DNA of 16,788 bases. Origin: a virus. Taxonomy: Duplodnaviria; Heunggongvirae; Uroviricota; Caudoviricetes. Below are positions 3,092-16,788 of the stretch, piece after piece. A program made the position numbers and the translations under genes. The notes under the pieces were generated by a model, which had not been told where the DNA came from, searched no databases, and worked only from the letters and a program-made list of their open reading frames with translations. Numbering within the stretch: the stretch's first letter is position 1; each line of letters starts with the position of its first letter. Location of the stretch: IMG/VR virus record IMGVR_UViG_2667528074_000009; one strand, given 5' to 3'.

Positions 3092-3577
3092 TTAGTTTTG
3101 CTGTTCTATTTTAAGCTTGATAGTTTCATACAAAACAATAGTTGCGCCTGTTTTACATAATTCCCGGCTGTCATACGCACGAGACCAATAACACAACCAG
3201 TTCTCGAGATCTTCTCGAGTATAGGTTTTGCAGGCCAGTCCCTCTGCCATTTCCACGATTTCATCGCCTGGTGCTGTTAACTCATAGCCATTCAACAACA
3301 AGAAGACGTAACCAGCCATCATAGCTGTTCGTTTGTTCGCATTAGCAAACGGATGATTCTGAATCAGACTTTCAATCAATACCGATGCCAGTACAAACAT
3401 GTCATTGATCTGTTCATACCATCGAACCATGCTGGGACGGGCCTGAGAAGAACTTAAGTTATCTGGACTCAGAACACCAACGGGCTCATCTGGCGTCTGT
3501 AATTCAATTAGGGAACGATTGATTTCAACAAGATCATCAACCGTAAGGTAATGCACACCTTCAACAATCTCAGCCAT
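3092..3577 (-). CDS. doc: Doc/Fic-family toxin (death-on-curing-like), 161 aa
   Basis: Contains HPFANANKRTAM, matching the Doc variant of the Fic motif (P1 Doc has HIFNDANKRTAL). Preceded 20 nt upstream by a small antitoxin-sized gene. Confidence 0.8.
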   Translation of the reverse strand: MAEIVEGVHYLTVDDLVEINRSLIELQTPDEPVGVLSPDNLSSSQARPSMVRWYEQINDMFVLASVLIESLIQNHPFANANKRTAMMAGYVFLLLNGYELTAPGDEIVEMAEGLACKTYTREDLENWLCYWSRAYDSRELCKTGATIVLYETIKLKIEQQN

Positions 3578-3992: not shown

Positions 3993-4148
3993 TTACTCCT
4001 CAGGTTCGTAAGCTGTGAAGACAGCGACCTCCGTCTGGCCGGTTCGGATTCGTACCTCGCAGAGGTCTTTCCTCGTTACCAGTGCCGTCACTATGACGGT
4101 TAAACAGATGACGATCAGGGCGATTAACATCGCCTTTTGCTGCTTCAT
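3993..4148 (-). CDS. hokD: Hok/Gef-family type I toxin (HokD/RelF-like), 51 aa
   Basis: Translation MKQQKAMLIALIVICLTVIVTALVTRKDLCEVRIRTGQTEVAVFTAYEPEE matches the HokD/RelF sequence as I recall it. GGAG RBS upstream of ATG 4148; stop TAA 3995..3993. Missing from the ORF track because it is under 60 aa. Confidence 0.9.
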   Translation of the reverse strand: MKQQKAMLIALIVICLTVIVTALVTRKDLCEVRIRTGQTEVAVFTAYEPEE

Positions 4149-4206
4149 AGCCTGCTTCTCCTTGACCTTTCGGTCCGTAAGAGGCTAACCTATGTTTGTG
4201 TGGCAT
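4000..4206 (-). CDS. mok: mok-like overlapping reading frame (68 codons)
   Basis: A 68-codon ORF starts upstream of hok and overlaps it almost entirely in another frame, the arrangement of mok in hok/mok/sok loci. Coding status inferred from position only. Confidence 0.45.
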   Translation of the reverse strand: MPHKHRLASYGPKGQGEAGYEAAKGDVNRPDRHLFNRHSDGTGNEERPLRGTNPNRPDGGRCLHSLRT

Positions 4207-4260
4207 AGATTGGGCCTCAGATTAATGTTAAGCGTCCTGCAAGACGCGTAATGTTAACTG
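4185..4260 (+). ncRNA. sok: Possible Sok-like antisense RNA (approximate, unverified)
   Basis: In hok/mok/sok loci Sok is antisense to the mok translation-initiation region, which here is around 4200. A TTGACC -35-like hexamer lies at 4162-4167 and an imperfect hairpin at 4233-4248. Boundaries are guesses. Confidence 0.2.
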
Positions 4261-4486
4261 GGGCTTTTCTCTGTCTGCCTTACAGTGGCATGCCCGAGGC
4301 AGACAGCCTCAAGCACCCGCAGCAATCTTACCGACACCGATAAGAAAACGCTATTTTTTATTGCCAGCACCATCTATCCAGGCTAATTTATCTGCGTCAG
4401 AACGGCGCAATGCGCTCGCCTGAGATACGTTTACTTGTCATTGGTAACAACAGATAACGGCAATTGTTGTTTCTGTTTTGTTTCCT

Positions 4487-10321: not shown

Positions 10322-10389
10322 GAATACCTACAGGTAAACAAAAGTCAATACCCGTGGGTTGTTTACCTTGTGGTAATCGCCTCTATTAT
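10322..10389. promoter_or_regulatory. OR-like operator/promoter region: three TACC-N4-GGTA half-palindromes with divergent promoters
   Basis: Sites TACCTACAGGTA (10326-10337), TACCCGTGGGTT (10350-10361), TACCTTGTGGTA (10365-10376). Leftward promoter candidate: -35 TTGACT (complement of 10344-10349), -10 TATTCT (complement of 10322-10327). Rightward candidate: -35 TTGTTT (10360-10365), -10 TATTAT (10384-10389). Confidence 0.55.
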
Positions 10390-10395
10390 TTACCT

Positions 10396-10815
10396 ATGGA
10401 CAAATATGAATTTAGACGAAAGCAACTCATCAAAATTCGTGATGAGAAATGCGATGGTAAAGCGGTTAACGTGGCCAGAAAAATCGGCCGCGAGCCTTCT
10501 TATGTATCAAGAATGTTGTACCCAGAGGGGAAAAAAGGGAAAAAACGGATCGCTGATGATATGGTGGAGATTATCGAAGAATCCTTTGGGTTACCCAGGG
10601 GATGGATGGATGGTATCGTTTCATCATCAACGAACACAACCTCCAATTATGAAACAAGGGTTCTAACACCACGACAACGTATTTTTTTAGATCTCTTGGA
10701 CGAACTGCCAGAAAGCGAAGCGGATAACCTATTAAAAACTCTTGAAGAGAAAAAACAATATTACAATATGATCTACGAAGAAATCAGCAAAAAGAAAGCA
10801 CGAAACGCATCATAG
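10396..10815 (+). CDS. CI-type repressor (DicA-like), 139 aa, probably leaderless
   Basis: N-terminal HTH (GKAVNVARKIGREPSYVSRML); C-terminal LTPRQRIFLDLLDELPESEADNLL resembles the DicA C-terminus as recalled. ATG 10396 lies about 7 nt after the candidate -10 with no RBS. The ORF-track start at 10354 falls inside the operator/promoter. Confidence 0.7.
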   Translation: MDKYEFRRKQLIKIRDEKCDGKAVNVARKIGREPSYVSRMLYPEGKKGKKRIADDMVEIIEESFGLPRGWMDGIVSSSTNTTSNYETRVLTPRQRIFLDLLDELPESEADNLLKTLEEKKQYYNMIYEEISKKKARNAS

Positions 10816-12333: not shown

Positions 12334-12390
12334 ATGTTGATTACCTTTTGGCGGCATCAGTTTCATTGCTGGCTGATGTCCGCCCTTTTT
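12334..12390 (+). ncRNA. dicF: DicF-like small regulatory RNA
   Basis: Lies 185 nt upstream of dicB. Conserved GGCGGCATCAGTTT core and terminator hairpin GGCGGCATCAG/CTGATGtCCGCC followed by TTTTT; downstream sequence AAAGTGAATTTTGTGATG...GGTGAATGCGGCT.AGCGCACGCG matches the K-12 dicF-dicB spacer as recalled. The 5' end is approximate. Confidence 0.55.
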
Positions 12391-12575
12391 AAAGTGAATT
12401 TTGTGATGCGGTGAATGCGGCTCAGCGCACGCGGAACAGTTAAAAAAGTGATCGGTACTCCGTATTTGTTTTATGGAGTTGGTTTCCCTGTATTCCGGCG
12501 TTAATTGTTAACTGGTTAACGTCACCTGGAGGCACCAGGCACCGCATCACAAAATTCATTGTTGAGGACGCGATA

Positions 12576-12764
12576 ATGGAAACGTTATTACCAAACGTTA
12601 ATACGTCTGAAGGTTGTTTTGAAATTGGTGTCAGAATCAGTAACCCTGTATTTACTGAAGATGCCATTAATAAGAGAAAACACGAACGGGAGCTATTAAA
12701 TCAAATATGCATTGTTTCAATGCTGGCCCGTTTACGCCTGATGCAAAAAGGATACTGGCAATGA
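12576..12764 (+). CDS. dicB: Cell-division inhibitor DicB (62 aa)
   Basis: METLLPNVNTSEGCFEIGVRISNPVFTEDAINKRKHERELLNQICIVSMLARLRLMQKGYWQ is near-identical to E. coli DicB as recalled; same length (62 aa). Confidence 0.9.
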   Translation: METLLPNVNTSEGCFEIGVRISNPVFTEDAINKRKHERELLNQICIVSMLARLRLMQKGYWQ

Positions 12765-12964
12765 ATACTGCTGTTGCTCTCACTCTGACAGTTTTTCTTA
12801 ATACGGGCGAGCCTGTTGACCTGGTTATTGACATTTACGGTTCAATGAAAGAATGCATGGCTGCCGCAGCGGAACAGAAAATTCCCGGTAACTGTTATCC
12901 GGTCGATAAAGTTATTCACCAGGATAATAACGAAATCCCGGCAGGACTTAAAACAGCGCCGTAA
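12761..12964 (+). CDS. ydfD: YdfD-like protein (67 aa)
   Basis: ATG overlaps the dicB stop (ATGA at 12761-12764). MNTAVALTLTVFLNTGEPVDL... has a hydrophobic N-terminus. Position matches ydfD, which follows dicB in Qin. Confidence 0.6.
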   Translation: MNTAVALTLTVFLNTGEPVDLVIDIYGSMKECMAAAAEQKIPGNCYPVDKVIHQDNNEIPAGLKTAP

Positions 12965-13041
12965 TTGATATTCGGTTTCATTTTTATATACCAGCAATGG
13001 CAGGGATTTGTTCACCCTTAAATCTGTAATGAGGTTTATCA

Positions 13042-15501
13042 ATGCGCACTGATAAAGAAGAATTTGCATTATATTGTGAAGCAAAAAATGACAAAGTCAG
13101 AAAACGCCTTGGAATTAAAGGTGGTTTTTACTGGACTACAGCAAAAAAATTATCTGTTGCCATCTCCCGCTGCATTACCGCAATGGATGACAACGATTAT
13201 GATGAAGACGACTTTAAAAAACCCGTCCGCGTCCATTTACCCGTTGTGAATGACCTTCCACCTGAAGGCGTGTTTGATACTGAATTCTGTAACCGTTACG
13301 AAAAAGGCGGGGAAGATGGCATCACAATGGTATTTATCGCGCCCTCACCCTCTGCGCAGGACAAACCAGCCAACACTGACAATACCAACGTCAACGGCGA
13401 AGACATGACTGAGATTGAGGAGAACATGCTCCTGCCGGTTTCAGGTCAGATTCTGCCTGTTCGATGGCTGGCACAGCACGGCAGCAAAAAACCGATCACA
13501 CACGTTTCGCGGGACGAACTGCGCGCATTACATAACGCACAGGATGAAAAACTTCCCGCCGTTACCGCGCTGGCTATCTCAAATAAAGCAGCGCAACTCG
13601 AACCGCTGGAGATTCGCGATCTCCACAAACTGGTGCGAGACACTGACAAAGTTTTCCCCGCCCCCGTAAATTCGGACCTGGGACTGATAACCTCTTTTAT
13701 CGAAGCATACCTGGACGCCGACTACACCGATCGCGGTCTGCTGACAAAAGAGTGGATGAAAGGAAATCGTGTTTCGCGTATCACCCGTACGGCTTCCGGT
13801 GCAAATGCCGGTGGCGGGAACAAAACCGATCGCAATCCGAATTTAGTACACACCTTCGATACGCTGGATGTGGAGATTGCAGCAGCCACACTTCCGATGG
13901 ATTTTAATATTTATGAAATTCCGGGCAGCGTTTATCGTCGCGCAAAAGACATCGTCCTGAAAAGAGAAAGTCCGTTCAAAGAATGGTCCGCAGCACTTCG
14001 CGCAACCCCGGGTATTCTTGACTATTCCCGCGCCGCTATTTTTGCACTTATCCGGAGCGCCCACCCTGAGTTTTATCACTACCCGGGACGCCTTCAGGGG
14101 TATATCAACGCCCACTTAACGGAGACTGATCACGAGAACCCCAGCAAGGAAACTCTCGCTGCTGCACGACATACACCGGAAAAGGATATCCTGGAAGAAG
14201 TTAACCGCGAACTGGCTGCTGAACGCGAAACAGAAGAAGAAAAAAATAATGAGGAAAAATCACAACCGTCTGACGCAATGGCAGATGAACAGGCAACGAC
14301 TACTGAAGCAATGGGACAGGATACAACTGAACATCGCCAGGACACACAATCGCTGGATACTCAGGCACAGATAAATCCGGTTAATCAGGTAAAAGTTACC
14401 GCTGTCGAAGTAAACAAAATTATGCAGGCAGCCAATATCAACCAGCCTGATGCCGACAAAATACTGGCAGTCCATCGCGGTGAGTTCGTTGACGGAATTA
14501 GCGACCCGAATGATCCGAAATGGGTTAAGGGGATTGAAACCCGCGATTCTGTGAACCAGAACCAGCCCGAATCGGAACAAAACGACCAGAAAGCGGAACA
14601 AAACAGCCCAAATGCGTTACAAAACGAGCCAGAAACGAAACAGCCTGAACCAGAAGAGCAACAAGAACCGGAAAAAGTCTGCACCGCCTGCGGTCAGACC
14701 GGCAGCGGCAACTGTCCTGACTGTGGCGCGGTGATGGGCAACGCAACATACCAGGAAACATTCGATGAAAAAAATCAGGCTGAAGTTCAGGAAGATGATC
14801 CGGAGGAAATGGAAGGCGCTGAACATCCGAACAATGAGAATGCTGGTAACGATCAGCATCACACCAGCGATAGTGAAACTGGCGAGGCGGCAGATCCCTT
14901 AATTGCGGTGAACGGTCATCACGTTATCACATCCACCAGCAGAGTGTGGATTCACCTGTCGGTCGACCTTGAAACGATGGGAACAAATCCTGATGCGCCA
15001 ATCAACTCTATTGGCGGTAAATTTTTTGATCCGGCAACCGGAGAGATGGGGCCTGAATTCAGTAAAGCTATCGATCTGGAAACCTCCGGCGGAATCATCG
15101 ACCGTAAAACAATAAAGTGGTGGGCGAAACGATCACGCGAAGCACAATCCGCTATTTTTACCGATGAAATCTCGTTAGATGTTGCTCTCCGGCTATTCAT
15201 AGAATTTATCGAAAAAAACTCCGGCGGGTGTTTTGTCCAGGTATGGGGAAATGGAGCCAACTTCGACAACGTAATTTTACGCCGTTCATATGAACGGCAG
15301 GGGATCCCCTGCCCATGGCTTTACTACAACGATCGCGATGTACGCACAATCGTTGAACTGGGTAATGCCATTGGCTTTGATGTCAGAATGGCTATTCCAT
15401 TCGAAGGCGTACCCCACAATGCGCTGGACGATGCCCGTCACCAGGCAAAACAAGTTTCAGCAATCTGGCAAAGACTGATCCCGCGTCAGGCTGATTTTTA
15501 A
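13042..15501 (+). CDS. Large early-left-operon protein (819 aa) with C-terminal DEDDh-type 3'-5' exonuclease domain, acidic low-complexity linker and CxxC-N9-CxxC zinc ribbon
   Basis: C-terminal motifs VDLETMG (Exo I), WGNGANFDNVIL (Exo II) and HNALDDARHQA (Exo III); central region about aa 380-620 is rich in E/D/Q/N/T; CTACGQTGSGNCPDCG around aa 545-560; GAGG RBS 8 nt upstream. Occupies the slot of ydfE (truncated in K-12 Qin). Confidence 0.75.
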   Translation: MRTDKEEFALYCEAKNDKVRKRLGIKGGFYWTTAKKLSVAISRCITAMDDNDYDEDDFKKPVRVHLPVVNDLPPEGVFDTEFCNRYEKGGEDGITMVFIAPSPSAQDKPANTDNTNVNGEDMTEIEENMLLPVSGQILPVRWLAQHGSKKPITHVSRDELRALHNAQDEKLPAVTALAISNKAAQLEPLEIRDLHKLVRDTDKVFPAPVNSDLGLITSFIEAYLDADYTDRGLLTKEWMKGNRVSRITRTASGANAGGGNKTDRNPNLVHTFDTLDVEIAAATLPMDFNIYEIPGSVYRRAKDIVLKRESPFKEWSAALRATPGILDYSRAAIFALIRSAHPEFYHYPGRLQGYINAHLTETDHENPSKETLAAARHTPEKDILEEVNRELAAERETEEEKNNEEKSQPSDAMADEQATTTEAMGQDTTEHRQDTQSLDTQAQINPVNQVKVTAVEVNKIMQAANINQPDADKILAVHRGEFVDGISDPNDPKWVKGIETRDSVNQNQPESEQNDQKAEQNSPNALQNEPETKQPEPEEQQEPEKVCTACGQTGSGNCPDCGAVMGNATYQETFDEKNQAEVQEDDPEEMEGAEHPNNENAGNDQHHTSDSETGEAADPLIAVNGHHVITSTSRVWIHLSVDLETMGTNPDAPINSIGGKFFDPATGEMGPEFSKAIDLETSGGIIDRKTIKWWAKRSREAQSAIFTDEISLDVALRLFIEFIEKNSGGCFVQVWGNGANFDNVILRRSYERQGIPCPWLYYNDRDVRTIVELGNAIGFDVRMAIPFEGVPHNALDDARHQAKQVSAIWQRLIPRQADF

Positions 15502-15559: not shown

Positions 15560-15763
15560 ATGAGCAGCTTATTTTTAACCGAAGATGAATTGCTAATATT
15601 AACGGGCTGCAAATATGCAAGCCACCAGCGAAAATGGTTAATGGAAAACGGGCTTCCGTTCTATACCAATCGTAGTGGCAAACCGATTGTCAGCCGGGAT
15701 CTATTTACCCGCAATAAAACTTTACCACCACGCGAGGTAGAGCCGAATTTTGGTGCGATCTGA
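15560..15763 (+). CDS. xis: Excisionase (Xis-like), 67 aa
   Basis: Small basic protein immediately upstream of and overlapping the integrase start (ATGA at 15761-15765), as for lambda xis-int. Confidence 0.7.
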   Translation: MSSLFLTEDELLILTGCKYASHQRKWLMENGLPFYTNRSGKPIVSRDLFTRNKTLPPREVEPNFGAI

Positions 15764-16788
15764 TGGGAAGACGAAGGAAAAATCCTGAACACGAAAAATT
15801 ACCTCCAAATGTATACCCAAATAAATATAGTTATGTATGGAAACCAACATCCAGAGAATCTGTAACACTAACCGCCATCAAGGATGGTTTTGCTGCTTTA
15901 TGGAAAAAGTATGAGGAAACTGTAAATAATCGCGATCGTGCAATGACATTCGGTCGCTTGTGGGAAAAATTCCTCGCCAGCGCCTATTACAGTGACCTTA
16001 GCCCAAGAACACAAAAAGATTATCTGCAACATCAAAAAAAGTTGCTTTCCGTATTCGGTAAGGTACCAGCGGATTCCATAAAACCAGAACACATCCGTCG
16101 ATACATGGACAAAAGAGGGGAACAGAGTAAAACGCAAGCCAACCATGAAAAAAGCAGTATGTCCCGTGTTTACAGTTGGGGGTATGAGCGAGGGTACGTA
16201 AAGGCTAACCCATGTGCAGGCGTAAGTAAATTCAAGGCCAAAAACCGCGAACGATATGTAACCGACAAAGAATACCAGGCAGTATTATGCGTTGCCCCCC
16301 TTCCTGTTTTTATCGCAATGGAAATTGCCTATCTGTGTGCAGCGAGGGTTTCCGATGTGTTATCGCTGAAATGGGAACAGGTTGGAAACGACGGGATCTT
16401 TATCCAGCAAGGGAAAACTGGGAAAAAACAGATAAAAGCATGGAGTCCACGATTACAGGCAGCGGTCGAAAAAGCAAAACAGTTACCAAAATCCGCCTAT
16501 GTTATCAGCAATCAATACGGCAACCGATATATGTACAAGGGCTTTAACGAAATGTGGGTAGAAGCCAGAAACCGTGCTGGAAAAATTTCAGGTATTTTAA
16601 CCGACTTCACCTTCCATGACCTGAAGGCGAAAGGAATTTCAGACTATGAAGGAAGCAGCCGGGATAAACAACTTTTCTCTGGTCACAAGACCGAAGGACA
16701 GGTACTAATCTATGACAGAAAGGTTAAGGTTTCACCAACACTTGATGTTCCGTTACCTGAAAATATTCCAGGAAAATATTCCAAGTAA
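15763..16788 (+). CDS. int: Site-specific tyrosine recombinase, lambda-family integrase (341 aa)
   Basis: N-terminus MGRRRKNPEHEKLPPNVY parallels lambda Int MGRRRSHERRDLPPNLY. C-terminal catalytic region carries ...RVSDVLSLKW... and ...FHDLKAKG... . The stop TAA is the last codon of the window. Confidence 0.9.
   Translation: MGRRRKNPEHEKLPPNVYPNKYSYVWKPTSRESVTLTAIKDGFAALWKKYEETVNNRDRAMTFGRLWEKFLASAYYSDLSPRTQKDYLQHQKKLLSVFGKVPADSIKPEHIRRYMDKRGEQSKTQANHEKSSMSRVYSWGYERGYVKANPCAGVSKFKAKNRERYVTDKEYQAVLCVAPLPVFIAMEIAYLCAARVSDVLSLKWEQVGNDGIFIQQGKTGKKQIKAWSPRLQAAVEKAKQLPKSAYVISNQYGNRYMYKGFNEMWVEARNRAGKISGILTDFTFHDLKAKGISDYEGSSRDKQLFSGHKTEGQVLIYDRKVKVSPTLDVPLPENIPGKYSK

Follow-up and report, generated by a model that had tools for sequence, protein, structure and literature searches.

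An early gene of a Qin-like prophage joins the non-nuclease part of RecE to a predicted DexA-type 3'-5' exonuclease

Introduction

Lambdoid prophages carry accessory genes next to their integrase, and for a large one of these the locus described here raises the question of what kind of protein is encoded, from where its parts were derived and what it may do for the phage. The window that was analysed is a stretch of 16,788 nucleotides (nt) from a virus of the Caudoviricetes (IMG/VR record IMGVR_UViG_2667528074_000009). Within a Qin-like lambdoid prophage, it corresponds to the region of the immunity, replication and early-left genes, and the gene in question is the open reading frame (ORF) at 13042-15501 (+ strand), which codes for 819 amino acids (aa). 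As judged from its sequence, the product is a mosaic early protein in which the non-catalytic ~620 residues of RecE have been joined to a DexA-type DEDDh exonuclease, with a sharp recombination junction between them.

The reading frame is complete, including its stop codon, and covers a RecE-type N-terminal module (N-module), an acidic linker and a DEDDh exonuclease domain. A three-part layout had been proposed in an initial annotation made from the sequence alone, and it was borne out by residue composition (ordinary for aa 1-370, skewed for aa 371-620, ordinary for aa 621-819), by Pfam and by AlphaFold2 (AF2) modelling. The full-length model was computed from a 48-sequence alignment with three clades (mean predicted local distance difference test score, pLDDT, 63.8; predicted template modelling score, pTM, 0.31). 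It is ordered at aa 4-100, which form an alpha/beta sub-domain, at aa 128-248 and aa 268-380, which form helical sub-domains, and at aa 633-815, which adopt the DEDDh fold.

RecE-like residues up to a sharp junction

The N-terminal ~370 residues had been left unassigned in the initial annotation, but they are clearly RecE-like. In BLASTP, aa 58-621 (13213-14904) are 55% identical to aa 50-591 of K-12 RecE, the non-nuclease part of that protein, with the acidic region and CNACGQTGGDNCPDC included. Pfam Exonuc_VIII (PF06630) matches aa 57-189 (E=9e-28), and positions 1-603 of 877 are matched in the NCBIfam exonuclease VIII model PRK09709, with a score of 876.6 bits that is below the equivalog cut-off of 1269. 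BLASTP gave no match to RecE aa 592-866, the nuclease domain, and DUF3799, the PD-(D/E)XK nuclease found at aa 615-850 of K-12 RecE, has no match in our protein. As the RecE nuclease domain is absent and the score stays below the equivalog cut-off, the label "exodeoxyribonuclease VIII" that is found in phage records is a misnomer.

The end of the similarity is equally sharp at the DNA level. Identity to K-12 recE is ~85-90% up to about 14903-14906 and is then lost abruptly. This mosaic junction (14903-14906, protein ...ADPLI / AVNG...) was located by DNA alignment to K-12 recE and by the BLASTP end point, and it just precedes the PD-(D/E)XK 5'-3' nuclease part of RecE. At the other end, aa 1-57 (13042-13212) do not align to K-12 RecE. 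They represent a variable head, starting with MSTDKEEFAL..., that is common to other alleles.

RecE of the Rac prophage in K-12 and the 819-residue protein have in common the Exonuc_VIII region, a DRGLL...NAGGG..TDR motif, an acidic linker and a CxxC-N7-CxxC motif, and both are encoded by early-left lambdoid genes oriented towards xis-int. They differ in the DEDDh 3'-5' domain, which stands where RecE has its PD-(D/E)XK 5'-3' domain, in the first 57 residues, and in the lack of a recT gene downstream.

The folded N-module spans aa 4-380 (13051-14181) in the AF2 model. Its most conserved motif, as judged from invariant alignment columns and a motif survey, is located at aa 230-266 (13729-13839) and reads DRGLL.KEW..GNRVS.I.RT.SG.NAGGG..TDR. 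The Gly-rich loop of this motif is predicted to be disordered, yet it is conserved with every type of C-terminus, and we regard the motif as the best candidate for the functional site of the N-module. A separate AF2 model of aa 1-380 reached a pLDDT of 73.3. When this model was compared to a viral structure library, nothing was found at E<=0.001, and a search of the PDB with the N-module sequence profile returned nothing.

For RecE itself, a 2023 review (PMC11611040) summarizes that no function is known for the N-terminal domain, that the nuclease does not require it and that in genetic terms the isolated nuclease domain is a sufficient substitute. The review also cites Fu et al. 2012 for a boost of linear-linear recombination by full-length RecE, an effect that the nuclease domain does not have by itself.

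The C-terminal domain is related to T4 DexA

A DEDDh exonuclease had been proposed for the C-terminus, and alignment of its catalytic residues, on which that assignment had been made to depend, was obtained in both profile and structure comparisons. The domain (aa 638-809, 14953-15468) belongs to the DnaQ-like 3'-5' exonucleases of the DexA / PF16473 family. Pfam PF16473 ("Rv2179c-like 3'-5' exoribonuclease") matches with E=3.9e-59 and 199.7 bits against a cut-off of 27, over profile positions 2-177 of 177. The Exo I motif D642-L-E644 (14965-14973) aligns to D7 and E9 of T4 DexA, the Exo II aspartate D742 (15265-15267) to D119, and H792 and D797 of the Exo III motif H792-x4-D797 (15415-15432) to H186 and D191. 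This alignment took in T4 DexA, gp34 of phage LLS and stand-alone enterobacterial homologues. Among 48 full-length homologues from several genera, E644, D742, H792 and D797 are invariant and D642 is present in at least 90%. With all five DEDDh residues in place, the sequence assigns the domain to the DEDDh 3'-5' exonuclease family.

T4 DexA (PDB 8KEL/8KEN) is the closest solved relative. A profile of the stand-alone homologues detected it in the PDB with E=2.4e-14, as the sole match below E=0.5, while oligoribonuclease/REXO2 chains reached only E 0.55-0.82. Foldseek on the predicted domain also placed DexA first, ahead of a DnaQ domain, RNase T and oligoribonucleases; for DexA, a DnaQ domain and RNase T, which have the RNase H-like fold, the Foldseek probability was 1.0. 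DexA was reached only with the isolated domain or with profiles, and the whole protein used as a single sequence retrieved nothing from the PDB sequences at E<=0.01. In spite of the aligned catalytic residues, identity to DexA is only ~25%, and DexA differs in being a stand-alone protein of 227 aa with extra loops. Residues W152, D169 and D90 of DexA correspond to Y762, A776 and V714, with an uncertain alignment around D169.

Much closer are the stand-alone "DnaQ-like exonucleases", namely gp34 of phage LLS and enterobacterial homologues of ~185-190 aa, which are 54-66% identical to aa 622-819. LLS gp34 (190 aa) occupies the same slot directly 5' of xis-int and belongs to a class noted in PMC12315714. 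In contrast to our protein, gp34 and the other stand-alone homologues are devoid of the 620-residue RecE-type extension.

Which substrate is used cannot be read from the Pfam name. Because T4 DexA itself scores in PF16473, the term "exoribonuclease" in the name of the family is not decisive for the substrate. As to a specific similarity to Rv2179c / RNase AS, the PDB profile search gave only DexA at E<0.5; which of the PDB entries contain Rv2179c was not confirmed. We consider DNA more likely to be the substrate than RNA because the nearest characterised relative, T4 DexA, is a DNase. Processing of host nucleic acids had been among the roles suggested earlier, and of this proposal the RNA variant has become the less likely one.

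The acidic linker and its cysteine motif were inherited from RecE

The two domains are connected by an acidic low-complexity linker (aa 381-632, 14182-14937). Over aa 371-620, D and E account for 23% of the residues and K and R for 7%, the net charge is -40, and Q/N/S/T/P/G make up 41%. The linker is predicted to be disordered, with AF2 pLDDT <50 throughout except for a small hairpin at aa 544-567. In this respect the initial description of an acidic disordered linker was accurate. It is acidic in all clades, neither its length nor its sequence is constant, and of all regions of the protein this one is under the least constraint.

A cysteine motif embedded in this region had been described as CxxC-N9-CxxC. 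The four cysteines are real (C547, C550, C558, C561), and they form two CxxC pairs, but the spacing is N7. This putative zinc knuckle of Cys4 type (CTACGQTGSGNCPDC, aa 547-561, 14680-14724) lies in the predicted hairpin of short strands, which AF2 models with low confidence (pLDDT 55-61), and is matched by Pfam DZR only below threshold (E=0.13). The motif is found in 12 of the 13 E. coli-clade sequences of the alignment and in K-12 RecE. It is absent from the Citrobacter and Phytobacter clades, though their architecture is identical and their linkers are still acidic. As the similarity to RecE extends over aa 58-621, linker and Cys4 motif have been inherited from RecE.

In one representative (P0242, 756 aa), the conserved loop of the N-module (...SGANAGGGN) joins directly to the ...CPDCGAV of the Cys4 motif. 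This looks like a deletion between two GGGN stretches by which ~300 residues were lost.

The gene is intact, frequent in E. coli and under purifying selection

The ORF is uninterrupted and starts with ATG, which is preceded at a distance of 8-11 nt by a Shine-Dalgarno-like GAGG (13031-13034, + strand), as read directly from the sequence. An NCBI entry named "exonuclease [Escherichia coli]" is identical across all 819 residues. Of the 5426 complete E. coli genomes, 1248 (~23%) contain the gene over at least 80% of its length, and the best nucleotide identity among them is only 94.4%. The ratio of non-synonymous to synonymous substitution rates (dN/dS) was computed against three alleles and was 0.04-0.45 over those region-by-allele comparisons that could be computed, with values of 0.12-0.31 for the N-module, 0.23-0.45 for the linker and 0.19-0.27 for the DEDDh domain. 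The gene is thus under purifying selection. The identical NCBI protein, the occurrence in so many genomes and the low dN/dS together exclude that this is a chance ORF.

When the closest allele from a complete genome (L001, 14001-16436) is used for comparison, the N-module has a synonymous divergence of 0.017, the linker one of 0.036 and the DEDDh domain one of 0.338. From this jump along the gene we conclude that modules are still being exchanged.

The N-module is combined with different C-termini

When 1.84 billion representative proteins were searched exhaustively by HMMER, with aa 1-380 as the query, only 219 clusters at 50% identity were obtained, so that the N-module has to be considered narrowly distributed. 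Its long relatives were sorted into classes by domain probes. About 25 representatives combine the N-module with a RecE-type PD-(D/E)XK domain and about 16 with a DEDDh domain, while a third class has a C-terminus without a recognisable nuclease. Ten members of this third class were scanned and had no Pfam match beyond Exonuc_VIII. The aa 230-266 motif is common to representatives of all three architectures. The third class probably corresponds to the "RecE-2" proteins of PMC12315714, relatives of the RecE N-terminal region that were described as being without a nuclease domain; the 819-residue protein differs from these by its intact DEDDh domain.

The fusion was seen in loci from Escherichia, Citrobacter and Phytobacter, and homologues have also been named from Salmonella and Enterobacter, which brings the number of enterobacterial genera to five. 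The homologues from Phytobacter and Enterobacter (L008, 8001-10508) show an apparent internal duplication of the N-module, with a repeated YVQNLL..A..V and two separate Exonuc_VIII matches. They also have a faint precomputed match to PF27432 ("YdfE_C").

The pseudogene ydfE of K-12 represents another allele

It had been stated that the Qin prophage of K-12 retains only a truncated gene at this position and that this fragment should be compared with the intact protein. The slot is indeed occupied in K-12, where the pseudogene ydfE (L002, 6079-6999) follows dicB-ydfD and is truncated by IS2. However, the part of ydfE that survived is not homologous. Neither BLASTP nor hhalign revealed significant similarity between K-12 YdfE and our protein. 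The overlap is limited to a motif of ~12 residues (QTWKTLDDELA in YdfE, HTFDTLDVEIA in the 819-residue protein), and a link emerged only via intermediate sequences. YdfE matches the N-terminal ~200-250 residues of 27 of the 150 representatives that had been recovered with the N-module, and its first ~245 residues are an alternative head that is unrelated to aa 1-269.

A YdfE-type ORF that is still intact (456 aa) exists in E. coli at locus L011 (737-3127). It consists of head and core, and its C-terminal part is 37% identical to aa 270-359 (E=9e-13), which belong to the helical core of the N-module. Two further segments follow in other frames, a linker/Cys4 segment of 157 aa that is 87% identical to aa 461-587, and a DEDDh segment of 183 aa. 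From its sequence, L011 apparently represents a frameshifted YdfE-type allele that is spread over three frames. The 183-aa E. coli form (P0071) had been considered as an independent stand-alone gene, which was rejected as it is the last piece of the frameshifted YdfE-type allele. This abundant cluster may consist of a pseudogene fragment.

Intact YdfE-type proteins thus have the helical core of the N-module in common with our protein and differ from it in the head. By sequence comparison, K-12 ydfE is what remains of another allele of this mosaic gene, one in which the N-terminal head is a different one. The cut by IS2 falls almost exactly at the start of the shared core. Because the surviving part is this different, non-homologous head, comparison with the ydfE fragment says little about the protein.

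Six additional representatives of 700-790 aa (P0302, P0304, P0308, P0329, P0364, P0376) carry a YdfE-type head and the helical core of the N-module. Their remaining ~350-450 residues match no Pfam family.

Location within the early-left operon

The order of genes in the window is that of a Qin-like prophage, with a DicA-like repressor (10354-10815), small ORFs resembling ydfA/B/C, a DicF-like element, dicB, a ydfD-like DUF1482 gene, the gene for the RecE-N/DEDDh protein, an excisionase-like gene and the integrase. Directly upstream are dicB (12576-12764) and the ydfD-like ORF (12707-12964, likely start at 12761), and downstream are the excisionase-like DUF4224 gene (15560-15763) and the tyrosine integrase (15763-16788), all on the + strand. 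From the repressor to int, the early-left operon contains neither an annealase nor another recombination gene. The same layout, with the gene being the last before xis-int, was found in every locus examined from E. coli, Citrobacter and Phytobacter, and no annealase was found in any of these. It has been described that genes for DnaQ-type nucleases occur near int in lambdoid early-left operons, outside recognisable recombination modules (PMC12315714).

The designation as an early gene is in agreement with this position, which is clearly within the early operon. From its place in the operon, the gene would be expected to be transcribed together with the other early-left genes once the prophage is induced, and to be silent in the repressed lysogen. 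Scanning the surroundings of the gene for promoters and terminators was not informative, as the results lay at or below shuffled expectation.

Several other elements were noticed in the window. A DicF-like small RNA (sRNA) at 12335-12385 (+) covers the full Rfam model (1-52) with 34.1 bits and E=2.8e-5, below the gathering score of 48. Considering its sequence and its location between the ydfC-like ORFs and dicB, as is the case for dicF in K-12, we take this element to be a diverged DicF. A sub-threshold match to the STnc100 sRNA (12383-12608, +; 34 bits against a gathering score of 47, E=2.6e-5) comes directly after the DicF-like element and overlaps the beginning of dicB. A sok antitoxin RNA of the hok/sok type at 4146-4318 (-) scores well over its gathering threshold (109 bits), and relatives annotate hokD there. 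The late-early region contains ORFs for a Doc-like toxin (3092-3577, -; phrog_577, E=1.7e-51) and for a protein of the DUF968/HNH-endonuclease family (1655-2704, -; phrog_96, E=1e-175). The window ends exactly with the stop codon of the integrase ORF. Relatives with this type of integrase are found at different chromosomal sites, at ompW (L001) and at a gene of the Bax1-I family, PF01027 (L011).

Proposed function and alternative explanations

We think the chances are moderately good that the protein is a phage DNA-end-processing enzyme, with an active DexA-type 3'-5' exonuclease connected by an acidic tether to a RecE-type platform that is indifferent to nuclease polarity. What doubt is left concerns mostly the substrate and the platform idea. 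The gene would be expressed upon prophage induction or infection. The C-terminal domain would then remove nucleotides from free 3'-OH ends by two-metal-ion hydrolysis, most likely from DNA, as DexA does. The N-module would probably act as a targeting or assembly platform on its flexible tether, and for this job it would not matter in which direction the attached nuclease works. The protein would then be a DNA-end processor and not a recombinase of the RecET type. The phage may profit from it by the trimming or blocking of 3' tails in replication or recombination, by degradation of competitor or host DNA, or by counter-defence.

Several points weigh against this explanation. The nuclease activity of the protein and of its fused homologues is only predicted, and DNA is preferred over RNA solely by analogy to the closest relative that has been characterised. 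RNase T and oligoribonuclease are similar in fold, too, and the Pfam family takes its name from an exoribonuclease. The N-module lacks an informative structural or sequence relative, and its role as a platform is argued from domain combinations alone. The low pTM values of the AF2 models (0.31 and 0.38) leave the relative arrangement of the domains undefined. Finally, the timing of expression is deduced from operon position, with an uninformative promoter scan.

A more far-reaching version of the platform idea is that the N-terminal ~380 residues of RecE are a self-contained, nuclease-indifferent platform that phages are free to equip with a nuclease of 5'-3' or of 3'-5' polarity, or to leave without one. 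Such a platform could be a module that binds DNA ends, the replisome or a host factor and that is built around the DRGLL...NAGGG..TDR loop. We put this forward tentatively and hold it to be doubtful. If true, the DEDDh version would be the natural polarity-reversed counterpart of RecE, by which DNA ends are processed without a dedicated annealase.

Among the alternatives, trimming of RNA 3' ends during phage development, by an exoribonuclease similar to Rv2179c/RNase AS or RNase T, is unlikely in our view. The targets might be transcripts of the dicB-DicF operon or host RNAs, and the DicF-like sRNA is indeed encoded 650 nt upstream in the same operon. The Pfam family name would fit, as would the Foldseek similarities to RNase T, Orn and REXO2 (E ~1e-5 to 1e-4). 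However, none of the exoribonucleases was significant in the profile search described above, by both profile and fold the nearest characterised relative is the DNase DexA, the family name is no guide to the substrate as DexA is a member, and the module to which the domain is joined derives from a nuclease of DNA recombination. Rather unlikely is an HREX-type defence, in which a DexA-like nuclease spares unmodified host DNA, degrades the 5-hydroxymethylcytosine (5hmC)-containing DNA of T-even phages and so protects the lysogen. For EcD, a DexA homologue of E. coli, degradation of T4 DNA and, upon expression from a plasmid, protection of the cells have been reported (PMC12153337), and the claim stands on this one over-expression study. 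EcD was rejected as a close homologue, with primer-derived termini (MIDTET... / ...TIPETYD) that do not fit the subfamily, and judged from these cloning-primer termini it apparently belongs to another one. That V714 replaces D90 of DexA, which is needed for the tetramer that attacks unmodified DNA, would be in line with such a defence, and accessory genes adjoining int are often exclusion or defence genes. On the other hand, there is no conservation at the positions for which 5hmC recognition has been proposed (Y762 for W152 and, in an uncertain part of the alignment, A776 for D169), no PADLOC defence model is matched, and within a repressor-controlled early-left operon that includes dicB the gene would be silent in the lysogen.

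It is quite unlikely that the protein is a polarity-reversed recombination exonuclease, for which the N-module would join DNA ends, the DEDDh domain would resect 3' strands, and the resulting 5' overhangs would anneal via host functions. In E. coli, the host 3'-5' exonuclease ExoIII contributes to the assembly of linear DNA in vivo. A recombination role of our protein would be in accord with an N-module and linker that are as in RecE, with an N-module that is kept with either type of nuclease, and with the boost of linear-linear recombination by full-length RecE but not by its nuclease alone (PMC11611040). Against it, the operon has no annealase gene in any locus examined, and the usual effect of DnaQ-like 3' exonucleases is to destroy 3' tails and thereby to inhibit recombination (PMC12315714). 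Enzymes of the DexA type are not known for processive resection of duplex DNA. For an anti-restriction role, which had been among the candidates of the initial annotation, nothing was found in support. That the acidic linker acts as an inhibitor by mimicking DNA, with the nuclease being secondary, we consider highly improbable. A net charge of -40 over ~250 residues and the acidity kept in all clades would suit a mimic, but this region is predicted to be disordered and is not a folded mimic, it is variable in length and sequence and least constrained, and it is the catalytic residues of the nuclease that are strictly conserved. Furthermore, RecE carries the same region, and to our knowledge no anti-restriction activity has been reported for RecE.

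Implications for RecE and for annotation

No new kind of system is represented by this widespread gene, which has already been annotated, codes for two known domains and has its domain pair listed in precomputed Pfam tables. A literature search returned no paper on the exchange of the RecE nuclease for a DEDDh domain, on the three-way modularity of the N-module or on the origin of ydfE. For annotation, "exodeoxyribonuclease VIII" is wrong with respect to the catalytic domain in many phage and prophage records, and "3'-5' exoribonuclease" is unjustified with respect to the substrate.

RecET is the workhorse of recombineering, and for the 600-residue N-terminal part of RecE the boost of linear-linear recombination is the sole reported effect. 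An N-terminal part that is kept intact under purifying selection together with a nuclease of opposite polarity, and that in other relatives occurs with no recognisable nuclease, argues for a role of the N-module that is independent of 5'-3' resection and RecT loading. These proteins are natural chimeras with which such an independence can be tested, and they represent a natural experiment on the function of the N-terminal part of RecE.

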